From: Thermodesulfovibrionia bacterium | Lineage (GTDB): Bacteria > Nitrospirota > Thermodesulfovibrionia > UBA6902 | DNA length: 64,000 bases | Reading direction: 5' to 3' | Assembly (NCBI GenBank): GCA_038918635.1 | Contig: JBCKZY010000001.1 | Span: 12,050-76,049 of the forward strand | Part shown: positions 17,740 through 33,447 of the stretch, in pieces | How positions within the stretch are numbered: position 1 is the stretch's first letter | Layout: the number at the start of each line of letters is the position of its first letter | Program-made: the position numbers and the translations under genes | The notes under the pieces: model-generated | What the model was told of the DNA's origin: nothing | What the model saw: the letters and a program-made list of their open reading frames with translations, nothing else | The model's database searches: none

Positions 17740-18384
17740 CTACCTTCTCAGTTTAGGAAAAAACCTGCCGGTCTTTTGTATATATTCTCTGTACCCGGCT
17801 CCATGAGTGTCGATAAGATACGCCTCCTCGTCATTAGTCATTATAGAGACACAGGTATAGTGAATAATAAGGATTATCAGGGAAAATAATGTGGGAAGAA
17901 GACAGGCCATCCCCATGAGAATCAAAATCTGAAATGAATAGATCGGGTGCCGCACAAAGCGGTATATCCCATGATTTACAAGGACGGTCTTAACTTTACT
18001 GTTGACGCCCAGTCTCCAGGAATTACCGATCAATGCATAACACCAAAGAGTTCCGGCATAACCAGCCAGAGCCAGCAGAATACCTATAACAACTCCAGGG
18101 GGGATAAAGAGAGGTTCCGGATAAGAAAATAATGTAGTATGCCGGTAATAATGAATAACAAGAGGCTGCCCCAACCATCCCCCGATTATAATGAACCAGC
18201 CCAAAGATAACAGCTTCTCTTTAAGTGTCCTGTACTTCATCAGATTGGGGGAGCCGCCGATATTCCTGCGAACGCGATAGACATTAATGACGACACCGCC
18301 CCAGTATATTAAGGCAGATATAAGGACAACCGCCTCTCTCATGATTGAAGACTTATCTGACATTCGCGGTCTGTCGTCTGGCAA
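17740..18384 (-). CDS. Membrane methyltransferase, ICMT/PEMT (isoprenylcysteine carboxyl methyltransferase) family
   Basis: Multi-TM protein with GIYRFVRHPIYSFQILILMG (the RHPxY motif). The start is uncertain (ATGs at 18384, 18363 and 18342). It overlaps or abuts the upstream gene. Confidence 0.65.
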   Translation of the reverse strand: MPDDRPRMSDKSSIMREAVVLISALIYWGGVVINVYRVRRNIGGSPNLMKYRTLKEKLLSLGWFIIIGGWLGQPLVIHYYRHTTLFSYPEPLFIPPGVVIGILLALAGYAGTLWCYALIGNSWRLGVNSKVKTVLVNHGIYRFVRHPIYSFQILILMGMACLLPTLFSLIILIIHYTCVSIMTNDEEAYLIDTHGAGYREYIQKTGRFFPKLRR

Positions 18385-19429
18385 GTATAAGGCGCTTCAG
18401 TTCAAGGACCCAGTGTTTCTTGATGCTATACCATACATCCGCTGCCCACAGGATATGTTTACTTGAAGAGCTAAAGGTAACGGTCATCTCTGGTTCCTCT
18501 TCCGGGATATAATTATTTATCCAGTCCCTTATCTCCCGATCCTCTGCAAGATGCTTTGTTCCGGGAATTGTAATATGATTATACCCCAGCGGCAATTTTA
18601 CATTCCGGACCCTGGCCTTACCGTTTGCCTTAAACTTATTCATAGAGCCAAAGCCTAAATAATCGCCTCCGAGTAAATCCATCCCCATATAAAATCCTGT
18701 AAACTCTTCTACTGAATCCGGGATACTTCTCAGCCTGCCTATCATACTCCATTGATTTGGCAGAAGCCTGGTAAAGCCTCCGGCGCCGACAGCTGTTACA
18801 TATGACAACTTCATGTCTACAACAGGTAGTGATACCCCCGTAAGAGGATCTATAATATAAGTTCTATCCTCTTTCTCTTTTATTAAAGGATTCCAGACAG
18901 GCACTTCTTTGCTGAAGTTTCCTGCCAATATATGAAGGACCTTTACAGCCTGTATACCTCCCTGGCTATGTCCTACCATCATCGGCCTCATCCCCTCTCT
19001 TTCGTAATACCAGGCAATCAGTCCAGCGAGTTTTTCACTGCCGAAATAACAGCTATAAGAGTAGGTCCCGTCAATTGGACTGCGAATACTCTCTTCCGGA
19101 TAACCCATTGAGATCACTAATTCAGAGAAAGATTTCATGAGCATCTTCATAAAGAAGATCGGATATACCCCGCCATGTATATTTACAATCCTCGGGGCAG
19201 GCGCATTCGACAGGACCTCTTTTATATCTTTTTCTGTTATATTTTCAGGATCAAGAGCCAGTATCTTTTCCTCTAACGCAGGGGCAAGAGAATATTGCCG
19301 AAGAACTGTCCCTTTCTTTATTTCCTTTATAGGATAGTTATAAGTATATTCTGAAGTTGTAGTTGCACAGCTGCCTGCAAAAACCACAAAAAAGAATAAA
19401 AATATTATAAGAATATGATTTTTCTTCAT
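18353..19429 (-). CDS. Probable lipoprotein with alpha/beta-hydrolase (lipase/esterase-like) nucleophile motif
   Basis: N-terminal signal with ...VVFAGSC. GHSQG nucleophile elbow in MMVGHSQGGIQAV. Its start overlaps the upstream stop by 4 nt. Confidence 0.55.
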   Translation of the reverse strand: MKKNHILIIFLFFFVVFAGSCATTTSEYTYNYPIKEIKKGTVLRQYSLAPALEEKILALDPENITEKDIKEVLSNAPAPRIVNIHGGVYPIFFMKMLMKSFSELVISMGYPEESIRSPIDGTYSYSCYFGSEKLAGLIAWYYEREGMRPMMVGHSQGGIQAVKVLHILAGNFSKEVPVWNPLIKEKEDRTYIIDPLTGVSLPVVDMKLSYVTAVGAGGFTRLLPNQWSMIGRLRSIPDSVEEFTGFYMGMDLLGGDYLGFGSMNKFKANGKARVRNVKLPLGYNHITIPGTKHLAEDREIRDWINNYIPEEEPEMTVTFSSSSKHILWAADVWYSIKKHWVLELKRLILARRQTANVR

Positions 19430-20727
19430 GTTTGCATTATGTCCGGATTAGATATATATTTTGAATAATCTGAAATGATTTTTGCAATATCATCTTTAGA
19501 AAAAACGGTTTTTCTGTAACTTACACCAACATTCAAGACATCTTTGACCGTGGTCAGAGAAAATACAAGCGGGGTAACGGGCCCTGTTGAAACGGCCCTG
19601 AAGTAGTCTATTAGGGCCTTATCTTCAGTTTGATCCCAGATGGTGTTTAAATTTATATTAGATATGCCACCACACAGAGGATAATTCTTTGAGTAGAAAT
19701 TGTTGCGCCGCTTTCTGAAAAAAAAGGTGAGCAAAAAAAGAGCCAGGGCCTGGTCTAAAATTGTCCCGAGATAAAGCTTATCTCTCTTTATCTTCTCTGT
19801 GCGTAAGTGTATATCCTTTGCAAGGTCCTCAACTGGGATCCCTTCAGGTACGGAATGCGATATATTAAATGAACCCAGGAACATTCCAAATTTCCCGCAG
19901 TCATCTAAGGCTAAGTCCCTACGTATGTTGACTGAAGACACAACAGAGAGTTTTTTCCGTCTCGGCTCTAATCTTCGTTCTTCAGCCAAAGGAGAGAGGG
20001 TCTTCAGAATAATGGCAATAAAGACGTCATTCAGTGTTACACCCCAGCCCTTTGCCTTTTTTATCAGTGGTTGAAACCGCGGGGCACCGATAGAGAAATA
20101 GGCAAAGCCTACGCTCTGGTCGTTATAATCCGAATACCTCGGCCTGAAGGACGCCCTTAGGTCGGATATGTGTCCCGGAAGGCTGTACACCCATTTAAAG
20201 AGGCGTTTAGGATTAAGTAATGGGAGGCAGCTGAGACTACGCTGATAAAGGTTTAAGGGCTCATCAGGGATTTGAGAATTTCCGTCCATATAAGACCTGA
20301 CAATGCTTTTAAGCAGATAAACAATAGAATCTCCGCCTGAGATAAGATGATAATACACAATACCAAGGTAAAATGACCGCTCTTCAGTGACCGTGAAGAA
20401 CCTGAACGGAGTAATGCTGTCGCTTTTGTCAAAAGGCGTATTTAACTGTCTTTGAACTTCACCGCATAAAACAGGAATAGGGTCACCCTGCCCTTCAATA
20501 ATTTCAATTTCAGTATTTACGCTGCCGCCTTTAAAATGAAACCTCTTCCTCCTCCGGTCAACCTCAAGTCCGGTTAAACCCTTAATCTCCAAACACCTCT
20601 CTACAGTATCTTTCAGCCTTCCTAACTCAAGAGGTTCTGGAACTCTGACTACATGAACAGCATTATATGGGTGTATCTCGTCCCACAGCAATACCGTCCT
20701 TTGAGGAATGTTCAATTTACCTTTCAT
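19426..20727 (-). CDS. Condensation/CAT-fold-like acyltransferase candidate (degenerate HHxxxDG)
   Basis: 433 aa. VYYHLISGGDSIVYLLKSIV aligns by eye to HHxxxDGxS, with the second His retained but the Asp position occupied by Gly. No other motif recognised. Confidence 0.35.
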   Translation of the reverse strand: MKGKLNIPQRTVLLWDEIHPYNAVHVVRVPEPLELGRLKDTVERCLEIKGLTGLEVDRRRKRFHFKGGSVNTEIEIIEGQGDPIPVLCGEVQRQLNTPFDKSDSITPFRFFTVTEERSFYLGIVYYHLISGGDSIVYLLKSIVRSYMDGNSQIPDEPLNLYQRSLSCLPLLNPKRLFKWVYSLPGHISDLRASFRPRYSDYNDQSVGFAYFSIGAPRFQPLIKKAKGWGVTLNDVFIAIILKTLSPLAEERRLEPRRKKLSVVSSVNIRRDLALDDCGKFGMFLGSFNISHSVPEGIPVEDLAKDIHLRTEKIKRDKLYLGTILDQALALFLLTFFFRKRRNNFYSKNYPLCGGISNINLNTIWDQTEDKALIDYFRAVSTGPVTPLVFSLTTVKDVLNVGVSYRKTVFSKDDIAKIISDYSKYISNPDIMQT

Positions 20728-20738
20728 AACTATTCGGG

Positions 20739-21746
20739 TTAATTCTCAGATATCAGATCACTTTTGTCTTTGTACGTCTTCCAGCGATTATGGATCCAGA
20801 GGTACTGTTCCGGGTATTTTCTTATTATCGTCTCCATCGAACGGTTCATCTCACCGGTAAGACGAAAAATTTCAGCCTTCTCACTCTCAAAGCTCCCCGG
20901 GTAGATAGGATCAGAGACGAACCCTTCATAGGCCTGTCCGCCGGCCTTTCTGCAGCATGCCACGACAACAATCGGCCTGTTGTAAGTAATCGCCAAAATT
21001 GCCGGAACAGGGGTTGTCGTGGCCTTGCGGCCGAAATAATCAACGGAAACGCCCTTCATGGTGCTCTGGTCCGGCAGCATGCCGATTGATTTTCCCTGCT
21101 GCAGCATTCTTCGAAGCACAAAAAAAGCGTTCCTCTTTGGAATAATCAACTGTCCGCTGTCGGCTCGATGCGCATAGATAAGCCTTTCGAGGTAAGGGTT
21201 GTCAAGCGGTCTTACAACAACTGCAAGAGTTATTCCGACTACAGCGCTGATCGCCGGAAGGACCTCCCAGTTGCCGATATGCGGCGTTACAAATATACAG
21301 CCGCCTGCGTCATCATGTATTTTTCTGGCCTTTAAAAAGAGTTCATCAAGACCTTCTGTCGAGCGTCTTAGGCTGTTGATGGCATCCGGCCCCGTCAGGA
21401 GGGAACGGGATTTCATAACCTCCAGAAATGTGAGGAAGAATGATTGACAGCTCTGGCGGGCGATTCTCTTTATCTCGCCGTCGCTCTTTTCACCTTTAAA
21501 AGCTTTGCGGAGGTTATCTACAGCTATTTCGCGTCGACGTGCAGCAAGAAGATAAAGCAGATTACCCAGAAAACCGCTCACCGCGTTAAGTGCCCTGAAC
21601 GGCAGTATACCGGAGACCCGGAACAGAAGAGATACCGATATAAATTCGAGTATACAGATTAGCCGGTTTTTTTTTCGCTTTTTTTTCGCCACCCTATGCT
21701 TATGATACATCAAATCGCATGTATGTGTAATATCCTGCGGGACCAA
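20739..21746 (-). CDS. LpxL/HtrB-family (lipid A-type) lysophospholipid acyltransferase
   Basis: N-terminal TM segment, VTPHIGNWEV (HxGNWE), and C-terminal YPEQYLWIHNRWK. The ORF-track start is TTG at 21746; an ATG alternative lies at 21710. Confidence 0.7.
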   Translation of the reverse strand: MVPQDITHTCDLMYHKHRVAKKKRKKNRLICILEFISVSLLFRVSGILPFRALNAVSGFLGNLLYLLAARRREIAVDNLRKAFKGEKSDGEIKRIARQSCQSFFLTFLEVMKSRSLLTGPDAINSLRRSTEGLDELFLKARKIHDDAGGCIFVTPHIGNWEVLPAISAVVGITLAVVVRPLDNPYLERLIYAHRADSGQLIIPKRNAFFVLRRMLQQGKSIGMLPDQSTMKGVSVDYFGRKATTTPVPAILAITYNRPIVVVACCRKAGGQAYEGFVSDPIYPGSFESEKAEIFRLTGEMNRSMETIIRKYPEQYLWIHNRWKTYKDKSDLISEN

Positions 21747-21782
21747 AACTGTAAAGAATTTTGCGATGCCGTGATGTCAATC

Positions 21783-23078
21783 TTATCCCGTTTCAGTGCC
21801 GACCACCACTGATGAAGACTGACCACCTATACCGTAACTGACCGATATAAAATGCTCCTTATCACATTCCTGGGCAGTTCCGGCTATTCTAAGGTCCATA
21901 AATTCACTTTCAGCTTCATTAAAGTTTAGAGTGGCAGGGACCATCCCGTTCTTTACCGCCTTTAATCCAAATATGACCTCTGCGATATCACTTGCCGCGC
22001 CCATATGTCCGGTATACGGCTTCAACCCGCAGACCGGCACATCCTCTCTTTTATTGCCAAGCACCTTATGAACAGAATTCAACTCGGATCTGTCCCCTTT
22101 TCTGGTTCCGCTTCCATGCTGTATGATACAGGCAAGTTCCCCTGCTTCGATTCCCGCCTCATGGAGGGCCATGGTAATACTACGCCTGCTGACTTCCGGA
22201 GGAACCTCGATTCCATGTCCGGATGAGAACTCAATACAGTCTCCAAACCCCTTTATATTTCCGATCGGTTCTGCTCCTCTCTCCCGGGCAGTCTCAGATG
22301 ACTCCAGGAAGAGCGCGGCTCCCCCCTCTCCAGCGATAAAACCATCCCTGGACCTGTCAAAAGGCCTGAAGGAGCCAGCTCCGTCCCTACACCTTGAAAG
22401 TATTCCAAGGCCTTCGAGTTCGTAAAGAGAGAGCTCTGTTATCCAGTTGCAGCACCCTACCGCCATCGCGATATCTGCCTTGCCCTGCTTAATACTCCTG
22501 TACGCGTGTTCAATCGCCTGTCCCCCGCACGGCGAGAGGCTGGCCAGGCTCGTGTTAGGACCCATGAACTCAAAGTATGCTGACAAAAAACTGAACAGGT
22601 TATTATAAATGGACTCAAGCAGAAAAAAAGGATTTACGTTATCCAGAGTGGACCTGTTCAGTTTTTCATAATCCATCTCTTCCCACTTACCGCCGGTTCC
22701 GTCCTTTGTAGCCTGAAACATGAAGTCATACCCCACCTTGGTAAAGTCTCCTGAGCCGATATATAGCGCCCTGCGTTCCGGCGGTATCTTTGACATCTGT
22801 ATCCCGCATTGGGAGACCGCCTCACGGGCTGAGGCAAATCCGAGAAGAGATCCGCGATTAAGGAACTTCATCTGGCTTAACAGCTTGGGAGAAATATCAT
22901 CCGGGTTTTTAAAATTACTCACCTTGCCGGCATATGTTAAAAAGTCGGGCGCGTCATCCTTAGGGTAATGCAAGATACCCGTCTTCATCGCGCTCATGTT
23001 CTGCCAGTTCTCCTCAACACTGCCGCCAAGGGACGTTACAAGCCCGGCGCCGGTTATAACAACTTCTCTCTCCTTCAT
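21783..23078 (-). CDS. Beta-ketoacyl synthase paralogue with Ser at the catalytic Cys position (KS variant)
   Basis: KS fold throughout. NTSLASLSPCGGQAIE aligns with NTSIVSACAAGAQAIG of the neighbouring KS, placing Ser where Cys is expected. Both His contexts are retained (QHGSGT, TGHMG). Confidence 0.7.
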   Translation of the reverse strand: MKEREVVITGAGLVTSLGGSVEENWQNMSAMKTGILHYPKDDAPDFLTYAGKVSNFKNPDDISPKLLSQMKFLNRGSLLGFASAREAVSQCGIQMSKIPPERRALYIGSGDFTKVGYDFMFQATKDGTGGKWEEMDYEKLNRSTLDNVNPFFLLESIYNNLFSFLSAYFEFMGPNTSLASLSPCGGQAIEHAYRSIKQGKADIAMAVGCCNWITELSLYELEGLGILSRCRDGAGSFRPFDRSRDGFIAGEGGAALFLESSETARERGAEPIGNIKGFGDCIEFSSGHGIEVPPEVSRRSITMALHEAGIEAGELACIIQHGSGTRKGDRSELNSVHKVLGNKREDVPVCGLKPYTGHMGAASDIAEVIFGLKAVKNGMVPATLNFNEAESEFMDLRIAGTAQECDKEHFISVSYGIGGQSSSVVVGTETG

Positions 23079-23080
23079 TA

Positions 23081-23533
23081 TTATAAATTTAACTCCCTGG
23101 TCAAAAGCTGAAAAAATCTCTTCTGATCGCTCACATCTTCAATCTCAGATAGCGGCACAATTTCTCCCTCAAATTCCGTTCTGATCTTCTTCTTACCGTG
23201 TACCGTCCCGACTCCGGAGTAGACCCTGATATCCGTCTCCTTATCGGATATATTCCTCACCTCAAGCTCTACCTGGTCGCCGGGAAGGGCAAAGCCGTAA
23301 AAATTACTTTTTCTAACTTTGTTGATCAGAAACCAGCTGGTAAAGTCCGAAGAGGCCGCCTCAAGCCAACCGGCTAACTGGGCAAGAGACTCCAAAAGCA
23401 TGACTCCCGGCATAATGGGGTTTTTGGGGAAATGGAACTCAAGGAAATCCTCACTCATGGCAACGTTCTTGACCCCCCTGATCAACTCGCCGGACTTATA
23501 CTCAGTGATATGATCGATCAATAAGTAACGCAT
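23081..23533 (-). CDS. FabZ/FabA-like hot-dog beta-hydroxyacyl-ACP dehydratase
   Basis: FLEFHFPKNPIMPGVMLLESLAQLAG (His and Glu contexts). 150 aa. It ends 2 nt before the next gene starts. Confidence 0.75.
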   Translation of the reverse strand: MRYLLIDHITEYKSGELIRGVKNVAMSEDFLEFHFPKNPIMPGVMLLESLAQLAGWLEAASSDFTSWFLINKVRKSNFYGFALPGDQVELEVRNISDKETDIRVYSGVGTVHGKKKIRTEFEGEIVPLSEIEDVSDQKRFFQLLTRELNL

Positions 23534-23825
23534 CGTCTTTTATGCCCCCCATGATGTAATACCTTTCTCACCTAGAACCATGTTATAACTCATCAGATAG
23601 ACTCTGATCCCGCGCTTACAGCTGTGTTACATGGTGGTCTCTGATAATGAACTACCCCGCAGCAGAGCTGCAAGGTATCTCCCCTCCCCCCGATAAAAGA
23701 CTCGGGACAGGCCCGTCAAGGGGGAGGGAAATTGGATTAACCCCGATGCAAAACATCGAGGAATTCTCTTGATTAAACTGTTTCCTGTATCAAAAAAAAT
23801 ATATTTGTTTGGATAAAAACCAGTT

Positions 23826-24224
23826 TCATGATACATCTGCCTTATCACCCATCAGGATTACGGTTGCAACAGCATACTGTGCCGAATGTGAAATGGAGAC
23901 GGTTAACTGTCGTATCTTCTTCTTTCTGCCCATCTTTTCCGCCCAGCCGCTAATCGAGAGCCCGGGTTTCCCCGAAGGAGTTGAAGAGACCTCGATCTCC
24001 TGAAGCGTGTTATCAATACCGGAAAGCCCCATGCCCAGCGCCTTCATACATGCCTCTTTCGCGGCAAACCTGCCCGCGAAATGTTTATAAGGCTCTTTCA
24101 TGGAAAGACAGTACTTCCTTTCGCCTTCAGTAAATATTTCTGAAACCAGGTCCTTATTCCTCAAAAAGAGATCAGCAAACTTCGGTATCTCTACAAGGTC
24201 AACTCCCTGATATACCTGCATCAT
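23826..24224 (-). CDS. acpS: Holo-ACP synthase (AcpS-type 4'-phosphopantetheinyl transferase)
   Basis: GVDLVEI, FTEGERKY, FAGRFAAKEACMKALG, ISHSAQYAVATV. 132 aa. 4-nt overlap with the upstream KR gene. Confidence 0.8.
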   Translation of the reverse strand: MMQVYQGVDLVEIPKFADLFLRNKDLVSEIFTEGERKYCLSMKEPYKHFAGRFAAKEACMKALGMGLSGIDNTLQEIEVSSTPSGKPGLSISGWAEKMGRKKKIRQLTVSISHSAQYAVATVILMGDKADVS

Positions 24225-24973
24225 GAGATACTTAACCCCCCATCAACAGATATTGTCTGCCCTGTTACATAGTCTGCCATGTCAGAAGCAAGAAAGAGCA
24301 CAAGGTTTGCAACATCCACCGGCTCACCAAACCTGCCCAGAGGGATCCGCTCAAGGATACTTTCACCTGCCCTCTTTCTGACACGGGTGCTCATCTCTGT
24401 ACGGATCATCCCCGGCAATACTGCGTTCACCTGAATCCCCCTTGATGCCAGTTCAACTGCACATGCCCGGGTAAAAGCGGTTAACCCTCCTTTTGAAGAC
24501 GCGTAATTCGTCTGCCCGCGTCCACCCCGTATCGCGCCGATCGAGGCGATATTGATAATCTTTCCGGAGCGGCCGGCCATCATCATCTCCCCGGCTCTCC
24601 GGGTGCAGAGGAAAGCTCCCCTAAGGTTAACATTGTGGACATCGTCCCAGTCTGAGAGCTCCATCGCGAACAAAAGATTGTCTTTGATAATCCCGGCATT
24701 ATTAACAAGTATATCCAGTCTGCTGAAACCATCACTTATATATTGAAAAAGCGCTTCAACCTCTTCGGGTTTGGATATATCCGCCTGAAAAATATCAGCG
24801 GAATGTCTTTTCTCTAATATCTCGTCTCTCAGCTCCGCGGCCTGTTTTTCGGACCTGCTGAAATTAATGATAACCTTTGCACCTGCTTCTGAAAGGCGCA
24901 GGCATATCTCTCTTCCGATCCCGCGTGCCCCACCTGTTACAAGGGCAACCTTATCTGATAAATTAATTTGCAT
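24221..24973 (-). CDS. 3-oxoacyl-ACP reductase (FabG-like SDR)
   Basis: TGGARGIG, NNAGI, and the YASSKGG (YxxxK) catalytic motif. 250 aa. Confidence 0.8.
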   Translation of the reverse strand: MQINLSDKVALVTGGARGIGREICLRLSEAGAKVIINFSRSEKQAAELRDEILEKRHSADIFQADISKPEEVEALFQYISDGFSRLDILVNNAGIIKDNLLFAMELSDWDDVHNVNLRGAFLCTRRAGEMMMAGRSGKIINIASIGAIRGGRGQTNYASSKGGLTAFTRACAVELASRGIQVNAVLPGMIRTEMSTRVRKRAGESILERIPLGRFGEPVDVANLVLFLASDMADYVTGQTISVDGGLSIS

Positions 24974-25106
24974 ATTTTATCTCCATGCGGCAATGTTCGT
25001 TTTTCAAATATCTATTATAGACCGAATAGTATTAATTTTGGTTCTACCGGCTTTTGTGTAGATTGTTCTGTCAACTACACCATACAAAAGAGCAGATCGC
25101 ATATTT

Positions 25107-25165
25107 CCCCTCTTTTGCAAAGACCAGTTGCTCCGCCCCGAGGCGAGGGGGGCAGGGGAGATTTT
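25107..25165 (+). repeat. 58-bp conserved repeat core (copy inside the lipid cluster)
   Basis: See 17556-17613. It is embedded in a roughly 300-bp composite repeat filling the KR-KS intergenic gap 24974-25369. Confidence 0.85.
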
Positions 25166-25369
25166 ATGAATAATAAAGAGTTCCATATTCTTTTCCTTTA
25201 CACTTAAGACTCTATTCAAGCAAAGCATAATCTATGAAATCCCCCTCTATCCCCCTTTACTAAAGGGGGAGGTTAAAATAACATCCTACATAACTGAAAA
25301 GATTACATAAGTTTATAAGTTGTTTCCACACTATTGCTGAAAGAACCTTAATTTTATATCTTTATATTT

Positions 25370-26668
25370 TTACCAGCTATCCCGCACCCTATATTTTCTT
25401 ACAACAACAGTAGCATTTTGCCCGCCAAAACCAAAAGAATTCGATAGCGCGGCATTAACCGTTCCTGCCCTTTTTCCCTCGGCAACATAATCAAGGTCAC
25501 ACTTCGGGTCCGGGTTCGTAAGATTGATTGTCGGATGTATTTCATCCCGGTTAACGCTCAGGACTGTATAGATAAACTCTGGGCCGCCTGCCGCCGCGAT
25601 CAGGTGTCCTATCATTGATTTACTCGAGCTGATCGGCAGATTATAGGCATGATCACCAAAGACCTTCTTGATCGCCAGGGTTTCCGTGCTGTCATTCAGT
25701 TTTGTGCCGGTCCCATGAGCATTAATATAATCCACTTCCCCGGGCCTCATGCCTGCATCCTCAAGTGACGACCGCATTGCCCTCTCGGCCCCCCGACCCT
25801 GAGGGTGCGGCGCTGTTACCTGAAACGCGTCCATGCTTGTGCCATAACCGGCAACCTCCGCATAGATCCTTGCCCCTCTCTTCAGCGCCCTGCCTTCCTC
25901 TTCAAGGACAACCACCCCCGCGCCTTCCCCCATCACCAGCCCGGACCTCTTTCTGTCAAAAGGTCTGCATGCTTTCTCCGGGGACTCAGATGAGATCGCC
26001 GCCGCTTTTAAAAGCACAAATGTAATAAGCCCTACCGGGTTAATCATTGAATCAGCGCCGCCGGCCAGGATCATTTCTGCGTCACCTCTCCGGATCATTC
26101 TGTATCCCATACCGATTGCCTGAGTAGCGGCGGCACATGCTGAAGTTATTGTTGCGTTGTAACCGTTTAATCCATACTTTCTGGCTATCAGAGCAGAAGG
26201 TCTGTTTGAATTATTTCGTATCAGTGATTCCCTGTGGACCGAACCGTATTCTCTGCCGAACCTGCGGTAATCGAAGGTGCCGTCGCCGTCCGTCCAGCGC
26301 TGGAGATCTTCAGGCCTGTTTATGCCGAGCCCTGCGGCGAGAATTACTCCGCAGCGATCTGTACCGCCGTCATGATTCAAACTGCCCGAATCACCAAGTG
26401 CTGAATGAGCCGCCCATAAGGCAAAGAGGGTCCTCCTCTCTCCTTCAGCATCAGCCTCTCTCTTAAGAGCGCCCCTGATACTCTTCAGGTCATCCTCTTT
26501 CACCCCGCCTGCCGCCTTAACGGGCAGACCAACCGAACCGGGCAAAGAGATGCTTTTAATTCCTGATTCTCCAGCGAGGACACTCTTCCAGTTCTCTTCA
26601 ATATGCAGACCGAGCGGGGTGACGATCCCGAGTCCGGTAATAACAACCCTTTTCCTACTGCTCACCAT
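25370..26668 (-). CDS. Beta-ketoacyl-ACP synthase, FabF-like, canonical Cys-His-His
   Basis: TSACAAATQAIG (Cys), NAHGTGTKLND (His), SKSMIGHLIAAAG (His), C-terminal SFGFGGQNA. Confidence 0.85.
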   Translation of the reverse strand: MVSSRKRVVITGLGIVTPLGLHIEENWKSVLAGESGIKSISLPGSVGLPVKAAGGVKEDDLKSIRGALKREADAEGERRTLFALWAAHSALGDSGSLNHDGGTDRCGVILAAGLGINRPEDLQRWTDGDGTFDYRRFGREYGSVHRESLIRNNSNRPSALIARKYGLNGYNATITSACAAATQAIGMGYRMIRRGDAEMILAGGADSMINPVGLITFVLLKAAAISSESPEKACRPFDRKRSGLVMGEGAGVVVLEEEGRALKRGARIYAEVAGYGTSMDAFQVTAPHPQGRGAERAMRSSLEDAGMRPGEVDYINAHGTGTKLNDSTETLAIKKVFGDHAYNLPISSSKSMIGHLIAAAGGPEFIYTVLSVNRDEIHPTINLTNPDPKCDLDYVAEGKRAGTVNAALSNSFGFGGQNATVVVRKYRVRDSW

Positions 26669-26671
26669 GAC

Positions 26672-27115
26672 TTATCTGTTCCGGATACCGCTGTAATATC
26701 GGAACTTTTCTTTAAGCTCATCAGGGCTTATCCGCTGAAAATGAGTGTAAATTGTACGGTTCATAGAAGCGATAAGCTTACCTTCTGAGTACATCTCCGC
26801 TCTGCCCAGAGTATCTCTTTTGGACGTTGATATGATCTCAGCGTGGATCTCGGCTGTAAAACCGGGCCTTAATTGAGCTGAAAAATGGACGTCTTCAATC
26901 AAAGACATAATGGCCGCGAGTTTGAAGTCATGTGAATACATGATCAGCCATCCAAGGAGCTGCGCCATCGCCTCAATCATGATGACTCCGGGCACAAGGG
27001 CAACTTTGCTGAAGTGCCCTCTCAGAAACTCCTCGGAAAGGGCAAATGATTTGACCCCCCTGATAGAAGCGCCCTTCTCTATACTGTCTACCCTGTCATA
27101 AAATAAAAACCGCAT
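26672..27115 (-). CDS. FabZ/FabA-like hot-dog dehydratase (second copy)
   Basis: FLRGHFSKVALVPGVIMIEAMAQLLG. 147 aa. Confidence 0.75.
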   Translation of the reverse strand: MRFLFYDRVDSIEKGASIRGVKSFALSEEFLRGHFSKVALVPGVIMIEAMAQLLGWLIMYSHDFKLAAIMSLIEDVHFSAQLRPGFTAEIHAEIISTSKRDTLGRAEMYSEGKLIASMNRTIYTHFQRISPDELKEKFRYYSGIRNR

Positions 27116-27395
27116 TCACACCTCTTTTTGCCACAGATTAACGCTGATTTTTCTTTTTTTATAAACTATGTAAATCACCATTGCTGTCATACCCGCGAAG
27201 CTTGTCCCAGCAGGCAGTAAGCAGGGAGCGGGTATCCAGATGTTTTTGATTTCACAAAATACTGGATTCCCGATAAAAACCTCGGGCCTGTCCCGATTTA
27301 TCGGGGAATGACAAATAAAGACTCTTCTGAAAGCCTCCCCAACATAAATACCATAAGGCTTATCTTTATCCGTGTCAATCCGTGAAGGTCCGTGG
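27116..27395. repeat. Composite repeat filling the CLF-DH intergenic gap (gccacagatt word, gtcataccc MITE 27185-27311, ccgtg word array)
   Basis: Built entirely from modules seen elsewhere in the window. ORF 27116-27409 in the track lies within it and is rejected. Confidence 0.75.
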
Positions 27396-28673
27396 CTAAA
27401 CAGCCTCAATAATCAGGGAAGCACACTGCCCTTCATAACTCTGGCAGTTTACCATAATACGGCCTGATTTTTTCTTTAACGGCACGTCACTGACAAGTTG
27501 AAACCTGATCTCTTCATCCAGCGGTTCCGGTGTTAGGACCGCGGGAATGACGCCATTCTCAATCATATAAAGAGCAAGGATGACATCAACGGCCGGAGCA
27601 CCGGCATACATATGTCCCAGAGCGCTCTTTGATGAATACACAGTTATTGTATCGACACAGTCTGAAAAAACGGTATGGACCGCCTCCATCTCATTGGCAT
27701 CGCCCCGGTGCGTTCCGTCCCCGTTCGCAATAATAACATCTATATCTTTTGCGTCTACCCCTGCCTTCTCCAAAGCGGCCCGCATCGAACGGGTAATCGC
27801 GTCTGTCGTCGGAGCCGGATAATCTTTCCCCATCCCGAAAGAAGATCCATAACCGGTAATCATAGCCCTGTACGGGATACCGCGGTCATCCGCGGAGGAT
27901 TTCAGCTCAAGCGCGATCATGCCGCACCCTTCGCCCGGAACAGTCCCATTCCGGTCCGCGCTAAAAGGTCTGCAAGGGTTTTTATGGTCGGAGTCTTTTG
28001 TATTCAGGGTGTTTGACAGGTGGGCACGTGCAAGGCCTGATGGTGAGACCTTTTCGCTTACACCCCCGGCAAGAACCACCTTCGCCCTTTTATCGATAAG
28101 GACCTCAACCGCTTCTGAAATCGCCTGTATCCCTGAGTCGGCATGAGGGGAAAATACCGCGTTTTCACCCCGTATATCAAGACTGATGGCAACCTGACAG
28201 AAGCTTATATTATTGAGCATGGAGAGAGGCCAGAGGGGAAAGATCTCCTGATACCCTTCTGAGAAGAACTTTTCATAGCTGAAATTTCCCTGAGAATCTC
28301 TTGATTTCAGGACAGCCGGAAGCAGGTCATCCACCTTATAGTCAACCATTCCCATACCGGCAAATAGTCCTATCTCCTCTCCCGGGATACCCTGTCTGGC
28401 GATACCGGCCTGCGCGTAAGCGTCATGCGCGCATTTCATCAGCATAAAGGAGTGTTTGTCCATGATCCGGGCATCCCGGGGATGTATCTCCAGACCTGCA
28501 ACGTCAAGCCCGTTAACCTGCGCCGCCACACAACAGTCAAAACCGCTTGCGTCAAAATCTTTAATGGGCTTTATGCCGCTTCTGCCGGCAAGCAGAGAAT
28601 CCCATGTCTCCCGTGCCGTATGCCCGAGAGAACTTATAAGCCCCGTACCTGTCACTACGATACGATCGTCCAT
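27396..28673 (-). CDS. KS-like chain-length-factor-type protein (catalytic Cys replaced by Ala, first His lost)
   Basis: KS fold, but ENAVFSPHADSGIQAIS aligns Ala at the Cys position. IANGDGTHRGD replaces xAHGTGT. The second His is retained (ALGHMYAG). Confidence 0.7.
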   Translation of the reverse strand: MDDRIVVTGTGLISSLGHTARETWDSLLAGRSGIKPIKDFDASGFDCCVAAQVNGLDVAGLEIHPRDARIMDKHSFMLMKCAHDAYAQAGIARQGIPGEEIGLFAGMGMVDYKVDDLLPAVLKSRDSQGNFSYEKFFSEGYQEIFPLWPLSMLNNISFCQVAISLDIRGENAVFSPHADSGIQAISEAVEVLIDKRAKVVLAGGVSEKVSPSGLARAHLSNTLNTKDSDHKNPCRPFSADRNGTVPGEGCGMIALELKSSADDRGIPYRAMITGYGSSFGMGKDYPAPTTDAITRSMRAALEKAGVDAKDIDVIIANGDGTHRGDANEMEAVHTVFSDCVDTITVYSSKSALGHMYAGAPAVDVILALYMIENGVIPAVLTPEPLDEEIRFQLVSDVPLKKKSGRIMVNCQSYEGQCASLIIEAV

Positions 28674-29007
28674 AAATAAAATAATACAGGATGCGGGATG
28701 TGGGATACAAGGCAGAAGAGTATTGATTGTGGGCAGAAGACTTACTTTTTCTACAGGATATATTTATTGTTTTTTCTGTTTATAATGCTGCAATCTAGGC
28801 GTTGAGTACTGTTATCTTCTATCCTAAAACCTGTAAAAATTGAAGGTTGCAAAAAGTAATCTTGTCTCCCCAACACCAAGCTGATATAATGATGGCAGTA
28901 CGAATAAAATACTCTTTAATATATTAAAGTCAGAAAGTGGAAATATTGATGTGGAACTATCACCGCTTATCCCTCCCCTGAGATATATCCCTACACGCAA
29001 CAAAATG

Positions 29008-29035
29008 TTGCAAAAAAAAGCTTCTGGCCTATAAA
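29008..29035 (+). promoter_or_regulatory. Candidate sigma70-type promoter for 29074-29739
   Basis: TTGCAA, a 16-nt spacer, then TATAAA, about 40 nt upstream of the ATG. A gcaaca-aaa-tgttgc palindrome overlaps the -35. Pattern match only. Confidence 0.3.
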
Positions 29036-29073
29036 ATCTAATTGATAATGAAATCAATTTTTTATCATATAAA

Positions 29074-29739
29074 ATGGATATAAGGGAATTAGGCAATTAT
29101 TTTAATGAACTGTTAACCATGGAGAAATTAATCGAAGCTTTTTCTACAAAAAAGAAAGCTTATATTAAAACAGAATCATTGAAAGGTATACCTGAATCTG
29201 ACCTCGATTCAACTCAATTTGATAGAATTATTGATAGTCGCTATAATGATCATGAGAAAGTTGCAACATCATTTATAGAAGCATTAGATGCTATTACAAA
29301 TTGCCCCCTTGTTGTTCAGCCAAAAGTTCAAGAAGGAGAGACATACACTATATCGATTATACCAACAGAAAAAGGGCATCCTTATTTAAGTGAATATCAA
29401 CGTGATAAGGACATTGCAATCCTATTGACTTACCTTGGATTAGTTGCTAACAACTCATCAAATGATAGTGGATGGAGTGAAGAACAATTAGCTCACTTCG
29501 ATTTAGTTAATTTATATAAAACTCAATGCTTAGCAACAAGGATAAATGAATTTTACATTCATTTAAATCCTAAAGATGAAACAGATAGGATATATCTGCC
29601 TGGCAATGGATTTGTAACTGACGAAAAGAAGAATAAACTCCTAACTAAAGAATTCTATGAAAGAGCCATTGCAACCCTTACGAAATTGGAAAAATTAGTT
29701 GCGCCTAGATTGGAATTAACAATATATCCTATTGATTAG
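29074..29739 (+). CDS. Hypothetical protein (orphan), opposite strand, in an AT-rich insert inside the lipid cluster
   Basis: 221-aa ORF with no motif I recognise. The local sequence 28680-29870 is visibly much more AT-rich than the flanking KS genes. Confidence 0.5.
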   Translation: MDIRELGNYFNELLTMEKLIEAFSTKKKAYIKTESLKGIPESDLDSTQFDRIIDSRYNDHEKVATSFIEALDAITNCPLVVQPKVQEGETYTISIIPTEKGHPYLSEYQRDKDIAILLTYLGLVANNSSNDSGWSEEQLAHFDLVNLYKTQCLATRINEFYIHLNPKDETDRIYLPGNGFVTDEKKNKLLTKEFYERAIATLTKLEKLVAPRLELTIYPID

Positions 29740-29879
29740 ATAAGATTTGGGGTCAGCCGTTCGTATTATGGACGGCCCTTTTGTTATTACTGTTTCAACC
29801 AATAATCATCAACATCCCAATGCTCCAAAATTGATGAGTAGTAGGTGTATTCACAATTGGCGGGGCAATCCTTAAAACC

Positions 29880-31176
29880 TTATTCCTCAAACGCCCCTAA
29901 ACAGAGGCACGCGTTTTGTCCGCCGAATCCAAAGGAGTTTGAGATGGCCCTGCGGTGAGCCTGCTGCCTTGCTTCATTCGGAACGTAATCAAGCCTGCAC
30001 TTCGGGTCGCGGAACTCATAATTGATGGTTGGGAGTATGAGAGAACTGTTTATTCCCACAAGGGTCAGGATCGCCTCAATAGCGCCTGTCGCGGCTATGG
30101 TATGTCCGAGCATCGACTTGTTTGAGCTGACGGGAATCTCCTTTGCCCTCTCTCCAAAGACCTCCTTAATGGCGTATGTTTCCCCGATGTCATTCTGAGT
30201 GGTTGATGTGCCGTGAGCGTTGATATAGTCTATATCATCCGGTAAAAGCGATGCATCTTCCAGCGCCCCGCGCATGGCAAAGATAGCCCCCCCTGCCTTT
30301 CGGATGCGTATCGGTAATCCTGTAGGCATCCGCTGACGCGCCATATCCCAGAAGCTCTCCGAGGATCGGCACTCCCCGTGACCGGGCATGTTCCAGCTCC
30401 TCCAGTACCATTGCTCCCGCCCCCTCTGACATGACAAACCCGTTTCTCTTGCGGTCAAAGGGCCTTGACGCCTCCTGAGGAGTGCTGTATTTTTCGCAAA
30501 GCGCGCGTATCAGGACAAACCCGACAAAGCCGGTAAAATTCAGGTCGGCCTCACAGCCGCCGGCAATCATTACATCACTCCTGCCTTCCTGTATCATTCT
30601 TTGCGCCTCCCCGATCGCCTGCGCGCCCGCGGCACAGGCAGATACGATGGAAGTATTAACTCCCTTGCAGTTGAAGAGTATTGAGAGAATGGCCATGGCG
30701 GCGTCAGGTTTTCTGCGGAAGAAGTTCAGGTAGGAATACCCCCCGGCCTTCATCAGCCCCCTGATATCCCAGTTGCCTCTGCCGTCAAAAAACCGGTGAG
30801 CAAACATCATGTCCTCTACAGAAGGGGTATCACCATGAGAACCGAGTGAAACGCCGATCCTCTCACGGTCTTCTACTTCATCAAGCCTGGCCTGCCCGGC
30901 CGCCTCAAGGGTAGCGATCCTCATCAGCCTGAGGGCCCGGGATGACACCTTATCAAACCGGTGAGCGGTATTGTCTTCAATATCTTCCAGCCATCTGTCA
31001 TCAATCTCTCCACCGATTCGACACGGCAGGCCGGTTGTGTCAAATGACTTTATATAATCTATTCCGGACTCTCCTTTACTGGCTTTCTCAAAGGTCTCCT
31101 CCGTGTTCTTCCCAAGCGGGGTGACCATCCCGTACCCTGTAATGACCACCCTGCGTTTATTTGAACTGTCTGTCAT
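29880..31176 (-). pseudogene. Beta-ketoacyl-ACP synthase, FabF-like (Cys-His-His), interrupted by a frameshift in a C7/G7 homopolymer
   Basis: ORFs 30235-31176 and 29880-30458 are the N- and C-terminal parts of one KS (SACAAGAQAIG; [11 protein letters not shown]; [11 protein letters not shown]). The frames switch at 30287-30293. Removing one base gives [20 protein letters not shown]. Confidence 0.8.
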
Positions 31177-31269
31177 AGCATCCTGTCACTTTGAATTATT
31201 AGTGAAGCTCTCCACCTACAAGGCGGGGATTCAAAAGAATATTTCATTAATGATTATTCAATTTGTATT

Positions 31270-31328
31270 CCCCTCTTTAGCAAAGACCCGTTGCTCCGCC
31301 CCGAGGCGAGGGGGGCAGGGGAGATTTT
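31270..31328 (+). repeat. 58-bp conserved repeat core, within a ~270-bp composite element (31190-31460) homologous to 55240-55545
   Basis: Shared flanking modules: ...ctacaaggcgg..., the core, then aatcccc..tt.gaaaaggggg, then cttttcatc.ccgtttacaaaacggggtatt.aagtt. Confidence 0.8.
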
Positions 31329-31822
31329 TATAAAGGAATTATTCATAAAATCCCCCTCAATCCCCCTTTTCCAAAGGGGGGAGAACAATAAGGAAAACTT
31401 TTCATCCCCGTTTACAAAACGGGGTATTCAAGTTCTTTATTCATAAAATTAGACACAAATTATACGATTCTTGCTACTCTTTCCTTTATTCTGTCATTCC
31501 CCGACGGAGTCGGGGAATGACACTAGTTGTAGGATATGTGAAGCGGTTGAAAGAATAGATTTCGACACCTTAAGAGCGGCATTATCTAGCCTGTCCCGCC
31601 TGTCCCGATTCTTCGGGGATACTTCGGGGCTTGTAGAACATTCACCTCTAAGGTGATTAAATACTTACCCGCTTCGCCGAATCGAGGCGAGCAGGCGCAA
31701 TCGGACAAATCCCATCGAGTTATCTATTCTTGTCCGCCACATTATGTATAATGTGGCGAGATCTCGCCTTAGGCGGAAAAGCGCTTTGCATAACCACATT
31801 GCTAATTAATCACTAAATTGGA

Positions 31823-32386
31823 TTAAAATATCTTCTTCTCTTCCTGTACCTTTGTGAGCCATTCCTTGATAAGATCATCACCATTCATAAAGACGGCATT
31901 TTCTCCACATGATCCGCATTTAACACGCACACCATCCTCGGATTTCCATTCCGATTTTCCACAGTGTGAACACTGCTCGGGAAGGCTGTCAAGGACGTCC
32001 ATCACCCCCGCTGACATTGACCCTGCTGTTACGAACGAAGGGATTTCGTCCATATCCATCCCTGCGCTTAATCCTGCAAGGTTCTCCCCCAGCCTCTCTT
32101 TTAAAAGTACGATCGCCTTCTCTGTCAACCTACCATCTTCATCGATCGCAGAGCCTTCACCGAACATCTCCTCAACATGCTCAAGGACAAAATGTCGCGC
32201 CATCTTGATCCCGAAGGCCTGTTCAAGCCTGTAGTTTATATCCAGAAAGTCCAGGGATTCAGCTCCCAGGTCACCTATTAAAGAACTTTCTTTCTTTATT
32301 GCGTCCTCATCGACCCTTAGTGTCTCAATAATTGCCTTCTTAAGTTCATCAAAGACCTTCTCTTCAGTAATAAGATTCTGCTTCAT
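31823..32386 (-). CDS. Acyl carrier protein fused to a C-terminal extension ending in a CxxC...CxxC zinc-ribbon-like motif
   Basis: DLGAESLDFLDINYRLEQAFG (phosphopantetheine Ser context), then about 120 extra residues ending in CSHCG-x14-CGSCG. AAGGGGG RBS before the ATG at 32386; the track's upstream start at 32449 lies in a repeat. Confidence 0.7.
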   Translation of the reverse strand: MKQNLITEEKVFDELKKAIIETLRVDEDAIKKESSLIGDLGAESLDFLDINYRLEQAFGIKMARHFVLEHVEEMFGEGSAIDEDGRLTEKAIVLLKERLGENLAGLSAGMDMDEIPSFVTAGSMSAGVMDVLDSLPEQCSHCGKSEWKSEDGVRVKCGSCGENAVFMNGDDLIKEWLTKVQEEKKIF

Positions 32387-32667
32387 AATGCCCCCTTTAT
32401 TTATAATTTTGCCACTGACCCGCTTCGCCGAAGCGAGGCGAGCTTTCACAGACTAAAAAATAAAATATAAATAAGAAAAGCCTGTTTTCTCTTTTGTTCT
32501 GTTTTAAGTCTTAACTTTATTTAAGTCTGTGTAAATCTGTACACGATGCATAAAGCAGAGTGACTAAGTGTTTGTTGTTTTCTTATGTTTTTGTCTCTAC
32601 GTTAAAAGTCTGTGTGAATCTGTGGCAAATTATCTTTTATTTTGTCTTCATTCGTGTAAATTCGTGG
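32387..32667 (-). repeat. Composite hairpin element (cacagactt word family), same orientation as transcription; homologous to 46211-46385
   Basis: It shares what looks by eye like an identical ~75-nt core (cacagacttaaataaagttaagacttaaaacagaacaaaagagaaaacaggcttttcttatttatatttt) flanked by inverted gccacaga..cacagact words. The 3' arm is interrupted by a 27-bp mini-palindrome. Confidence 0.8.
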
Positions 32668-33447
32668 CTAAATCCCCTTAGGAGGACGGTAAAGCCTGTT
32701 GCTAAGGCCCCTGTCCACCACGATGGTCTGACCGCGAATCCCCCTGCTAGCCTCACTGCACAAAAACAGTACAGCATCGGCTATCTCATCAGTATCAACT
32801 ATAAGCTCTTCAGGTATCTGTTCAATCTCTTCCATATGCTGTCTTAAAACCTTAAAGGAGTCTGTCTTAACAATACCGCCGCAAACCCCGTTAACTGATA
32901 CACCCTTTTCGCCCAAGCTCTCCGCGCAGTCCCTTACAACAGCCTCCATCGCCGCCTTCATACTGCCCAGAGGATAGGAGGGGTTGTAAAAACGGCTCCC
33001 AAGGCTTGAAATAAATACAATACTGCCTTTGCTCTTCTGAAGAAGCGGAAGCGCCTCCTGAATACAGAAGATATTTCCAAAGAAGTTGGTCTCAACCAGC
33101 TGTCTGAGCTCGCGCTCAAGGAGCCTCTCAATTGATTTAAAAGGCGCTTTTGCGGCGTTTAAGATAAGGAAGTCTAAACCGCCGCACTTCTCTTCTGTCT
33201 CTTTCAGCAGGCCTTTAACCTCTCCCTTAATCGATATGTCCGCCTGCACCAGAAAGGCGCGGCTCCCTGCATCCTGCATCTCCCTGCATAACCCTTCTCC
33301 TCTTTCCCGGGACCGGCCCCCGGCCGTTCTGTTGTTAATAACAACATCCGCTCCGGATAGGGAAAATCTTCTGGCAATGGCGGCGCCGATACCGCGCGTA
33401 CCGCCTGTTACAAGAGCAACCTTATTACTGAAAGGACGATTCTGCAT
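32668..33447 (-). CDS. SDR-family oxidoreductase, FabL-like (candidate enoyl-ACP reductase)
   Basis: TGGTRGIGAAIA, NAAKAPF, ISSLGSRFYNPSYPLGSMKAAMEA and VNGVCGGIVKTD resemble B. subtilis FabL (ISSLGS...Y...SKAALEA, VNAVSGGAIDTD) as I recall it. KR versus ER cannot be settled by eye. Confidence 0.55.
   Translation of the reverse strand: MQNRPFSNKVALVTGGTRGIGAAIARRFSLSGADVVINNRTAGGRSRERGEGLCREMQDAGSRAFLVQADISIKGEVKGLLKETEEKCGGLDFLILNAAKAPFKSIERLLERELRQLVETNFFGNIFCIQEALPLLQKSKGSIVFISSLGSRFYNPSYPLGSMKAAMEAVVRDCAESLGEKGVSVNGVCGGIVKTDSFKVLRQHMEEIEQIPEELIVDTDEIADAVLFLCSEASRGIRGQTIVVDRGLSNRLYRPPKGI

Follow-up and report, generated by a model that had tools for sequence, protein, structure and literature searches.

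An enlarged acyl carrier protein with a predicted four-cysteine zinc ribbon in a ketosynthase gene cluster of Thermodesulfovibrionia

The window analysed here is a stretch of 64,000 nucleotides from a Thermodesulfovibrionia bacterium (contig JBCKZY010000001.1 of assembly GCA_038918635.1, positions 12,050 to 76,049). It encodes an acyl carrier protein (ACP) of 187 residues, designated ACP-Zn. Nearly all known type II carriers are four-helix bundles of about 80 residues. ACP-Zn is predicted, from structural modelling, to be a split ACP fold that forms one globule with an insert, a ribbon and a C-terminal helix, and not an ACP with a floppy tail. It is very probably the dedicated carrier of a co-inherited pathway. 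The explanation that best accounts for the whole, and that is slightly favoured, is a dedicated carrier rebuilt as a zinc-stapled globule with a pathway-specific recognition lobe. The family to which ACP-Zn belongs is small, phylogenetically wide and unannotated. It is tied to an uncharacterised lipid pathway and has a patchy distribution in Nitrospirota and a few other phyla.

The ACP-Zn gene is situated on the minus strand at 31823-32386, with an ATG start codon at 32386-32384 and a TAA stop codon at 31825-31823. The opposite, plus-strand frame of this interval is riddled with stops. A GTG-started variant of 208 residues appears in a mechanical list of open reading frames (ORFs), but the aligned relatives begin instead at the MKQ/MSQ methionine. 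The serine to which the prosthetic group would be attached is Ser44 (codon 32255-32257), within GDLGAESLDFLDINYRLEQAFG (GAESLDF). The four cysteines are laid out as C139-S-H-C142, 14 residues, and C157-G-S-C160. An earlier note on this DNA had given this CxxC-x14-CxxC pattern exactly, but had taken the ribbon for the end of the protein. The chain runs on for 27 more residues (ENAVFMNGDDLIKEWLTKVQEEKKIF) as a conserved helix at the C-terminus.

A word-indexed search of 5.8 billion proteins found 789 homologues of ACP-Zn at E<=1e-3. Those among the 120 listed have 182-191 residues, are at least 71% identical to the query and come mostly from metagenome-assembled genomes (MAGs) of Nitrospirota; their current annotation is either 'hypothetical' or 'acyl carrier protein'. 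Neither ACP-Zn nor its homologues thus have the size of an ordinary ACP (about 75-100 residues). Conservation was assessed in two alignments, one of 30 close sequences and one of 24 divergent sequences having 23-68% identity. The four cysteines are invariant in both. Ser44 is invariant in the close sequences and nearly invariant in the divergent ones, in which G76, T88 and P136 are nearly invariant as well. The conservation of the insert compares with that of the N-terminal half of the ACP as 0.74 to 0.84 in close relatives and as 0.36 to 0.41 in distant ones. The picture of an oversized, conserved carrier with a C4, putatively zinc-binding ribbon, which had been proposed in the earlier note, is borne out by the homologues and by the conservation of the cysteines.

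The extension by itself (residues 61-187) matched just 57 of 1.84 billion cluster representatives. In the full-length matches, which have about 183-226 residues, the N-terminal half of an ACP always lies ahead of the extension at the same offset, down to 25% identity. Candidates for the extension in other fusions proved to be unrelated, the long matches being BED-type or other zinc-finger repeat proteins. The two apparently stand-alone pieces of the extension that were looked up (P0146 and P0124) are broken genes from one error-rich, frameshift-ridden long-read assembly, and a 42-residue ORF holding the missing N-terminal part sits just upstream of P0146. Given the conserved homologues, the fixed offset and the explanation of the stand-alone pieces as broken genes, the combination of ACP and extension is, as far as the compared sequences go, obligatory in the ACP-Zn family and exclusive to it, and a frameshift is excluded.

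The long reading frame might have been an artefact in which a normal ACP gene has been joined to the ORF that follows it, and the neighbouring ketosynthase (KS) gene does have a homopolymer frameshift. This explanation is refuted by hundreds of independent assemblies, in which the protein likewise has 185-190 residues, by the even conservation over the supposed junction and by the one-domain structural model, and its probability is negligible. The reservation that the true gene might stop after the ACP domain because of a sequencing frameshift, which was attached to the original description of the fusion, falls with it, given the 789 homologues, the invariant cysteines and the even conservation.

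The ACP part of the protein is recognised by sequence over its N-terminal half. The Pfam PP-binding model (PF00550) covers residues 13-70 only, with 30.2 bits against a gathering cut-off of 20.8, and the sequence matches to ACPs in the PDB span residues 7-63. Alignment with the housekeeping AcpP of the same genome using hhalign gave a probability of 98% over residues 11-66 (56 columns, 34% identity). The ACP models of NCBIfam likewise cover the N-terminal half only, and ACP-Zn remains under the cut-off of every one of them. Among the models for AcpP, the best gives 49.3 bits against a cut-off of 71, and TIGR00517 gives 42.6 against 70.45.

Modelled alone by AlphaFold2 using the 24 divergent sequences, ACP-Zn forms a single compact domain, with a predicted local distance difference test (pLDDT) of 94.1 and a predicted template modelling (pTM) score of 0.88. 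The 50 best Foldseek matches of this model in the PDB are all ACPs. Alignments restricted to helices I and II (53-58 columns) have target-normalised template modelling scores (TM-scores) of 0.61-0.71. Longer alignments, of 120-122 columns, to ACPs of 75-101 residues reach a target-normalised TM-score of up to 0.80. Alignments of this length to such short proteins need a gap of at least about 45 residues, and helices III and IV are therefore placed after the insert. When residues 63-107 were deleted in silico, significant matches to ACPs in the PDB increased from 26 to 50, the best of them scored 44.8 bits instead of 38.3, and the phmmer alignment reached DMDEIPS. The four-helix bundle thus appears, in the model, to be kept and to be interrupted by an insertion of about 45 residues. 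The statement of the earlier note that residues 1-60 are a normal ACP holds in so far as the N-terminal half and Ser44 are genuine. However, the equivalents of helices III and IV are found at residues 112-132, on the far side of the insert, both in the AlphaFold2 model and in the Foldseek alignments.

The C-terminal helix is similarly conserved. Close relatives all share N168, G169, D170, W176 and L177, and the pattern GD..L...W is retained in the divergent set. It had also been suggested that the ribbon could tether the ACP, but the high pTM describes a compact globule and so speaks against flexible tethering.

Databases contain no family for the remaining part of the protein. Searching Pfam with the extension, as had been proposed, gave at E<=10 only generic, insignificant zinc-finger matches, with nothing for the insert. 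In profile searches of the PDB, the whole protein matched ACPs only, the extension matched generic zinc ribbons only, and the insert matched nothing. The author of the earlier note did not recognise the fusion and allowed that the extension might belong to a well-described ACP subfamily. Pfam, NCBIfam and the PDB lack a family for these additional 120 or so residues, and the full-text literature searched, where subscription journals are thinly covered, yielded no account of a zinc-ribbon ACP.

The spacing between the two cysteine pairs is roughly 12-16 residues across the family, and two ribbon strands are predicted by AlphaFold2 at residues 147-149 and 155-157. The best match of the extension profile in the PDB is eS27 (E=4e-4). 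Weaker matches, at E values of 0.002-0.03, are to S27e, LysW (E=0.007), RNA polymerase subunit P/Rpb12 and L37Ae, and the zinc-ribbon models of Pfam match at E>0.1 only. The Cys4 site presumably binds zinc, as a structural staple.

Alternatively, the cysteines might bind iron in the manner of rubredoxin, or sense redox state or metal, which would make ACP-Zn an electron-transfer or regulatory carrier. The host organisms are anaerobic and have many iron proteins, and in many members both knuckles are of the CxxCG type. However, the spacing of 12-16 residues and the best profiles (eS27, LysW, Rpb12 and L37Ae) are those of zinc ribbons. Even at E<=10 there is no Pfam match to the rubredoxin family, and the Pfam and NCBIfam scans gave no sign in the cluster of an enzyme dependent on such a donor, be it a desaturase, a P450 or a radical-SAM protein. 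Such a role is very improbable.

A somewhat better case can be made for the cysteines being a mere staple of a neutral elaboration of the fold, in which event the enlarged ACP would behave as any dedicated small ACP. Zinc ribbons are often purely structural, the pTM of 0.88 corresponds to a ribbon integrated in the fold, and many members of the family come from subsurface or hydrothermal MAGs. Nevertheless, the insert and the C-terminal helix are as strongly conserved as the ACP half, including the nearly invariant G76, T88 and P136. The architecture is unchanged in several phyla and types of cluster, a constraint that is hard to explain without a function. This explanation is also improbable.

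To examine the association of ACP-Zn with a particular set of genes, 80 related loci were compared, all from species representatives of GTDB. The order of a short-chain dehydrogenase/reductase (SDR), ACP-Zn and KS occurs in all 80, the KS being absent only where the contig ends. About half of the loci run straight on to a chain-length factor (CLF)-like KS, a dehydratase, a KS, FabG, an AcpS-type phosphopantetheinyl transferase and a second dehydratase. The hosts of the related loci are mostly Thermodesulfovibrionia and other Nitrospirota; further hosts are Syntrophobacteraceae, Desulfosarcina/Desulfobacteraceae, Nitrospinota, Binatia, NC10 and one MAG labelled as Chloroflexota.

Co-occurrence, a survey of which had also been proposed, was followed in 301 genomes of the phylum, using thresholds of E<=1e-60 for the CLF-like KS and E<=1e-95 for the LpxL-type orthologue. 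The extension was found in 13 genomes. The same 13 genomes, and no others, have the CLF-like KS, including cases in which the two genes are separated by 47 kb or lie on separate contigs. Twelve of the 13 also have the LpxL-type orthologue, which occurs in two further genomes. The complete genome of one relative (G001) has the SDR-ACPZn-KS trio at 2.34 Mb and a block of KS, FabG, AcpS, dehydratase, KS and LpxL genes at 0.6 Mb.

Two members of the family to which the genome of the window belongs, G235 and G303, have kept the LpxL-type orthologue and have neither ACP-Zn nor the CLF-like KS; the copy in G303 has an internal stop. The acyltransferase of these genomes may be a remnant of cluster loss or may have an independent role.

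Distant members of the ACP-Zn family, at 25-46% identity, are still found among genes for KS, CLF, ketoreductase (KR) and dehydratase (DH). At 46% identity to the protein of the window the cluster is the same. The gene order is KS-CLF-ACPZn-KR-LpxA-like around P0150, and ACPZn-KS-x-KS-KS-aminotransferase around P0159. P0138 lies in the order ACPZn-AcpS-SDR-SDR-ApeI-like DH-KS, with genes resembling 2-hydroxyacyl-CoA dehydratase alongside. P0177 is followed by a small ACP and then an SDR, and P0155 adjoins an adenosine 5'-phosphosulfate (APS) kinase fusion and a protein with a nitronate monooxygenase (NMO) domain.

Some of the more distant loci have neighbourhoods of their own. A metagenome contig of the Joint Genome Institute (L092, 1436-12341) carries a 41%-identical ACP-Zn in a different cluster, which includes an ACP of 127 residues, two proteins of the HGD-D/BcrAD type (2-hydroxyacyl-CoA dehydratase-like), a nitroreductase and a class III aminotransferase. 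Its AcpS gene comes directly after ACP-Zn and is followed by two SDRs, an ApeI-like dehydratase and a KS. In another locus (L083, 6445-10465) a 30%-identical ACP-Zn is situated between a PUA_2/APS-kinase fusion and a nitronate monooxygenase (FabK-like) protein of 617 residues. This locus adjoins ABC exporters and glycosyltransferases. Such neighbours give a hint that the lipid made in that lineage is sulfated or glycosylated. In one subclade of Thermodesulfovibrionia (15 of the 80 loci, e.g. L014, 238-3163), the trio is a few kb from LpxI and from genes for a GFO/IDH/MocA oxidoreductase and a DegT aminotransferase, from which it is separated by a divergent SLT/LysM gene. The oxidoreductase and aminotransferase genes may be GnnA/GnnB-like and serve the 2,3-diamino-2,3-dideoxyglucose (GlcN3N) backbone of lipid A.

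The genome of the window is a MAG that is 68% complete. As assembled, it has two PP-binding genes, one for ACP-Zn and one for the housekeeping AcpP, which has 79 residues and is encoded in a fabG-acpP-fabF locus on contig C95. Two small ORFs in the cluster (27116-27409 and 25004-25228) were considered as further ACPs and were rejected, as they match no family and their sequences are not those of ACPs. ACP-Zn is thus the only carrier found for the cluster. The complete relative G001 has the cluster AcpS paralogue and a second AcpS elsewhere, which is 36% identical to the cluster AcpS of the window. The isoelectric points (pI) are 7.8-8.9 for the cluster AcpS and 6.9 for the second AcpS of G001; a charge-reversed cluster AcpS is, on these values, not seen in the ACP-Zn lineage. 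The possibility of a biotin-type specialised ACP as in Desulfovibrio (PMC10102598) was set aside. That ACP is not described there as oversized, and no bio genes turned up among the ORFs of the window that were scanned.

These observations suggest the following mechanism. ACP-Zn, once phosphopantetheinylated, would serve as the acyl carrier of an accessory lipid pathway, which is of type II and resembles fatty-acid or polyketide synthesis. The set of enzymes would comprise a FabL-like reductase, KS, CLF-like KS, two hot-dog dehydratases, FabG, the pathway's own AcpS and an LpxL-type acyltransferase. Ser44 would be phosphopantetheinylated, probably by the cluster AcpS. The four-helix ACP would have been rebuilt as one globule of about 20 kDa by the insert in the loop between helices II and III, and the Cys4 ribbon with the amphipathic helix would pack as a second lobe, with the metal as a staple.

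Enzymes bind ACPs at the face formed by helix II, the loop and helix III, and it is there that the acyl chain passes in and out of the pocket. Because the insertion is exactly at the helix II-III loop, the lobe would alter this recognition and chain-flipping face. Most likely, the added lobe gives the carrier an additional surface by which the enzymes of its own pathway recognise it. The carrier would then be engaged solely by the KS/CLF, reductases, dehydratases, AcpS and acyltransferase of the cluster, and the pathway would stay apart from the housekeeping AcpP system. A further effect of the lobe may be to shield the growing chain. To judge from the position of the lobe, the synteny and the co-occurrence, a built-in recognition or insulation module is the preferred reading of the extra lobe, with a probability just short of even. 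The docking on the KS/CLF partners that the earlier note had raised is thus plausible. Arg53 in helix II is shared by all close relatives, and among the 24 divergent sequences about 11 have Arg or Lys at this position. A basic residue here is only suggestive of altered electrostatics towards the partners.

The main rival, which may also be complementary to recognition, is that the lobe mainly holds the chain. An enlarged or capped pocket would accommodate a very long or unusual acyl group, as in AcpXL, until its transfer by an acyltransferase of the LpxL or LpxA type. AcpXL is a specialised ACP of about 90-100 residues that serves the C28 acyl chain of lipid A in rhizobia. The AcpXL-type protein RPA2022 (2KW2/3LMO) is among the best PDB matches of ACP-Zn by both sequence and fold, and the insertion, to judge from its place in the AlphaFold2 model, is situated at the mouth of the ACP pocket. 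The cluster ends with an LpxL-type acyltransferase, the orthologue of which accompanies ACP-Zn in 12 of 13 genomes. An LpxA-like gene adjoins one distant member, a Lip_A_acyltrans gene is near another distant locus, and in 15 of the 80 loci the trio is near LpxI and the GnnA/GnnB-like genes. However, the LpxI/Gnn neighbourhood is found in a single subclade, where common descent may be the whole explanation. Moreover, AcpXL handles C28 with about 100 residues, so that 187 residues seem excessive for a pocket. Chain holding as the main function of the lobe is rather unlikely.

Several points weigh against a pathway-specific recognition lobe in a rebuilt, active carrier. The docking role stands on topology and analogy. 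Run with the 30 close homologues, AlphaFold2 produced a poor model, with a pLDDT of 66 overall and below 50 in the ACP core. Helix IV is not detected by sequence with either hhalign or phmmer, and the hhalign alignment to AcpP stops at helix II. Since the sequence methods miss helix IV, the placement of helices III and IV rests on the structure predicted from 24 sequences. The genome of the window, at 68% completeness, shows a single AcpS. Finally, because the KS adjacent to ACP-Zn is frameshifted, the pathway may be inactive in this organism, or the assembly may be wrong.

The positions of the carrier, its parts and its neighbours are given in the table.

Table. Parts of ACP-Zn and associated genes in the window
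Feature	Window position	Residues	Strand	Basis
Enlarged carrier ACP-Zn, complete coding sequence, 187 residues + stop	31823..32386		-	ORF and translation, homologues, shared start
Shine-Dalgarno AAGGGGG, 4 nucleotides 5' of ATG	32391..32397		-	Sequence inspection
ACP N-terminal half: helix I, loop, helix II	32201..32365	8-62	-	Pfam, hhalign, PDB, AlphaFold2
Helix I		8-23	-	AlphaFold2
Helix II, begins at Ser44		44-58	-	AlphaFold2
Family-specific insertion (normally short helix II-III loop)	32066..32200	63-107	-	AlphaFold2 pLDDT 87-96, Foldseek, in-silico deletion
First insert helix		67-75	-	AlphaFold2
Short turn with conserved FGEG...DG.LT		~76-88	-	AlphaFold2 and alignment
Second insert helix		89-99	-	AlphaFold2
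Predicted equivalents of ACP helices III/IV	31982..32065	108-135	-	AlphaFold2, Foldseek, phmmer of deletion construct
Helix III equivalent		112-118	-	AlphaFold2
Helix IV equivalent		121-132	-	AlphaFold2
Predicted C4 zinc ribbon (P136, both CxxC)	31892..31981	136-165	-	Cys conservation, strands, profile matches
C-terminal amphipathic helix (NGDDLIKEWLTKVQEEKKIF); AlphaFold2 helix 169-184	31826..31891	166-187	-	AlphaFold2 and alignments
FabL-like SDR, probable enoyl- or ketoacyl-ACP reductase, upstream partner	32668..33447		-	Pfam adh_short_C2; synteny
Canonical KS, downstream partner, frame split by extra G	29880..31176		-	Two overlapping ORFs with KS N- and C-domains
AcpS-type phosphopantetheinyl transferase, presumed ACP-Zn activator	23826..24224		-	PF01648; syntenic in relatives
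Remaining pathway genes	17740..28673		-	Pfam, NCBIfam, synteny

The best NCBIfam match of the upstream SDR is FabL, with 183.6 bits, under the cut-off of 328. The split of the downstream KS is caused by one surplus G in a run of seven (about 30285-30291), and with six G the frame encodes a KS of 431 residues. The gene is intact in the closest relative (L001, 95% identical; 5480-6775, 431 residues) and in L014. Beyond it, the order of genes is a CLF-like KS, a FabA-like dehydratase, KS, FabG, AcpS, a second dehydratase and a third KS. These are followed by an LpxL-family acyltransferase, which scores under the equivalog cut-offs, a condensation-domain-like protein, a protein of 358 residues that matches no family in Pfam or NCBIfam, and an ICMT-type methyltransferase.

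The ACP-Zn gene is flanked by gaps of 281 nucleotides (32387-32667) and 646 nucleotides (31177-31822). In most relatives the KS starts 1 nucleotide past the ACP-Zn stop (e.g. 6564/6566 in L014), and compared with this the wide gaps suggest that intergenic sequence has entered the operon in this genome. Between the SDR, ACP-Zn and KS genes of the window, no promoter-like or terminator-like site was found.

The first KS and the CLF-like KS are parted by an insert of about 1.2 kb (28674-29879), which holds an orphan ORF of 221 residues on the opposite strand (29074-29739) without a match in Pfam or NCBIfam. At the same KS/CLF junction L001 has a different insert of about 2 kb (6776-8783) with two opposite-strand ORFs; in most other relatives the two KS genes are adjacent. 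Elsewhere in the window, the plus strand at 15064-16386 encodes a protein of 440 residues with PilZ, DUF4388 and C-terminal DnaJ (J) domains.

Carriers are hubs of fatty-acid and polyketide synthesis, and the choice of partners and protection of the cargo are both an active question and a bottleneck for engineering. On the predicted structure, the ACP-Zn family shows that the minimal ACP fold has been expanded in nature by an internal insert and a metal-stapled lobe, in a design kept across phyla and cluster types. If the lobe is a specificity or chain-shielding module, ACP-Zn would provide a natural example of an orthogonal set of carrier and enzymes. The family would then also give a handle on an uncharacterised lipid pathway of Thermodesulfovibrionia, magnetotactic Nitrospirota, Syntrophobacteraceae and NC10, which possibly modifies an outer-membrane lipid. 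It marks a gap in annotation, since two thirds of ACP-Zn are covered by no model. A more far-reaching and doubtful proposal is that ACP-Zn represents an undescribed class of carriers. Its two-lobed, zinc-stapled domain of about 20 kDa would be an obligatory adaptor both for partner recognition and for handing over unusual chains to LpxL/LpxA-type acyltransferases. If this were true, there would be a new pathway of envelope-lipid (lipid A-like) acylation in Nitrospirota, Desulfobacterota, Nitrospinota and NC10.

The relationship of ACP-Zn to known carriers can be considered first for the housekeeping AcpP of the same genome. The two proteins share the N-terminal half, the motif (DLGAESLD in ACP-Zn, DLGADSLD in AcpP) and the predicted bundle. 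ACP-Zn is, however, 2.4 times longer, has Tyr52-Arg53 in helix II in place of the Met-Ala of AcpP, and is encoded in an accessory cluster found in 13 of the 301 genomes.

Aryl-polyene clusters have small tandem ACPs, ApeE/ApeF (PMC12624758). The cluster of ACP-Zn resembles the aryl-polyene and highly reducing type II polyketide synthase systems in having an iterative KS/CLF pair, a KR and hot-dog dehydratases, and the clusters of relatives match PF22818 (ApeI-like). It differs in having a single enlarged ACP, an additional FabL-like SDR, an AcpS, and an acyltransferase of the LpxL rather than the PlsC type. Pfam and NCBIfam scans of the cluster found neither an adenylating or aryl-starter enzyme nor LolA/MMPL-type genes.

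Two other systems resemble ACP-Zn with respect to the ribbon. LysW is a protein of about 54 residues whose substrate is attached to a C-terminal glutamate; it has neither phosphopantetheine nor an ACP fold. Like ACP-Zn, LysW (3WWL, 5K2M) is a carrier with a C4 zinc ribbon that the enzymes of its pathway recognise. The match between them is weak and is probably generic zinc-ribbon similarity, so that LysW would be a functional analogue and not a relative. The DUF35 zinc-ribbon/OB-fold proteins are described as scaffolds of thiolase-HMG-CoA synthase complexes (PMC12960953). They too are small proteins that bear a zinc ribbon and work with condensing enzymes of the thiolase superfamily, which makes them comparable by analogy only. 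Unlike ACP-Zn, they are no carriers and have no ACP fold, and no similarity is detectable (ACP-Zn has no Pfam DUF35 match).

Among true ACPs, AcpM of M. tuberculosis (115 residues, 1KLP) is likewise a dedicated ACP of a long-chain (meromycolate) type II fatty-acid synthase and has extra C-terminal residues. It matches ACP-Zn weakly by sequence, in helices I and II. The extension of AcpM is a flexible, unstructured tail without metal ligands, whereas the extra parts of ACP-Zn are predicted to be folded and integrated.

The role of AcpXL in rhizobial lipid A has been described (PMC9386255). The AcpXL system, with its FabZ/FabF paralogues and LpxXL, is the closest described system in logic. As with AcpXL, ACP-Zn is a second, pathway-dedicated ACP that occurs beside AcpP together with KS paralogues, hot-dog dehydratases and an LpxL-type acyltransferase. 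The rhizobial gene cluster for very-long-chain fatty acids of lipid A reportedly consists of acpXL-fabZXL-fabF2XL-fabF1XL-adhA2XL-lpxXL. The AcpXL-type RPA2022 of Rhodopseudomonas palustris aligns with ACP-Zn over residues 11-62 (helices I and II) only, and the alignment of the folds needs large gaps. ACP-Zn is set apart from AcpXL by the insert of 45 residues, the ribbon and the extra C-terminal helix.

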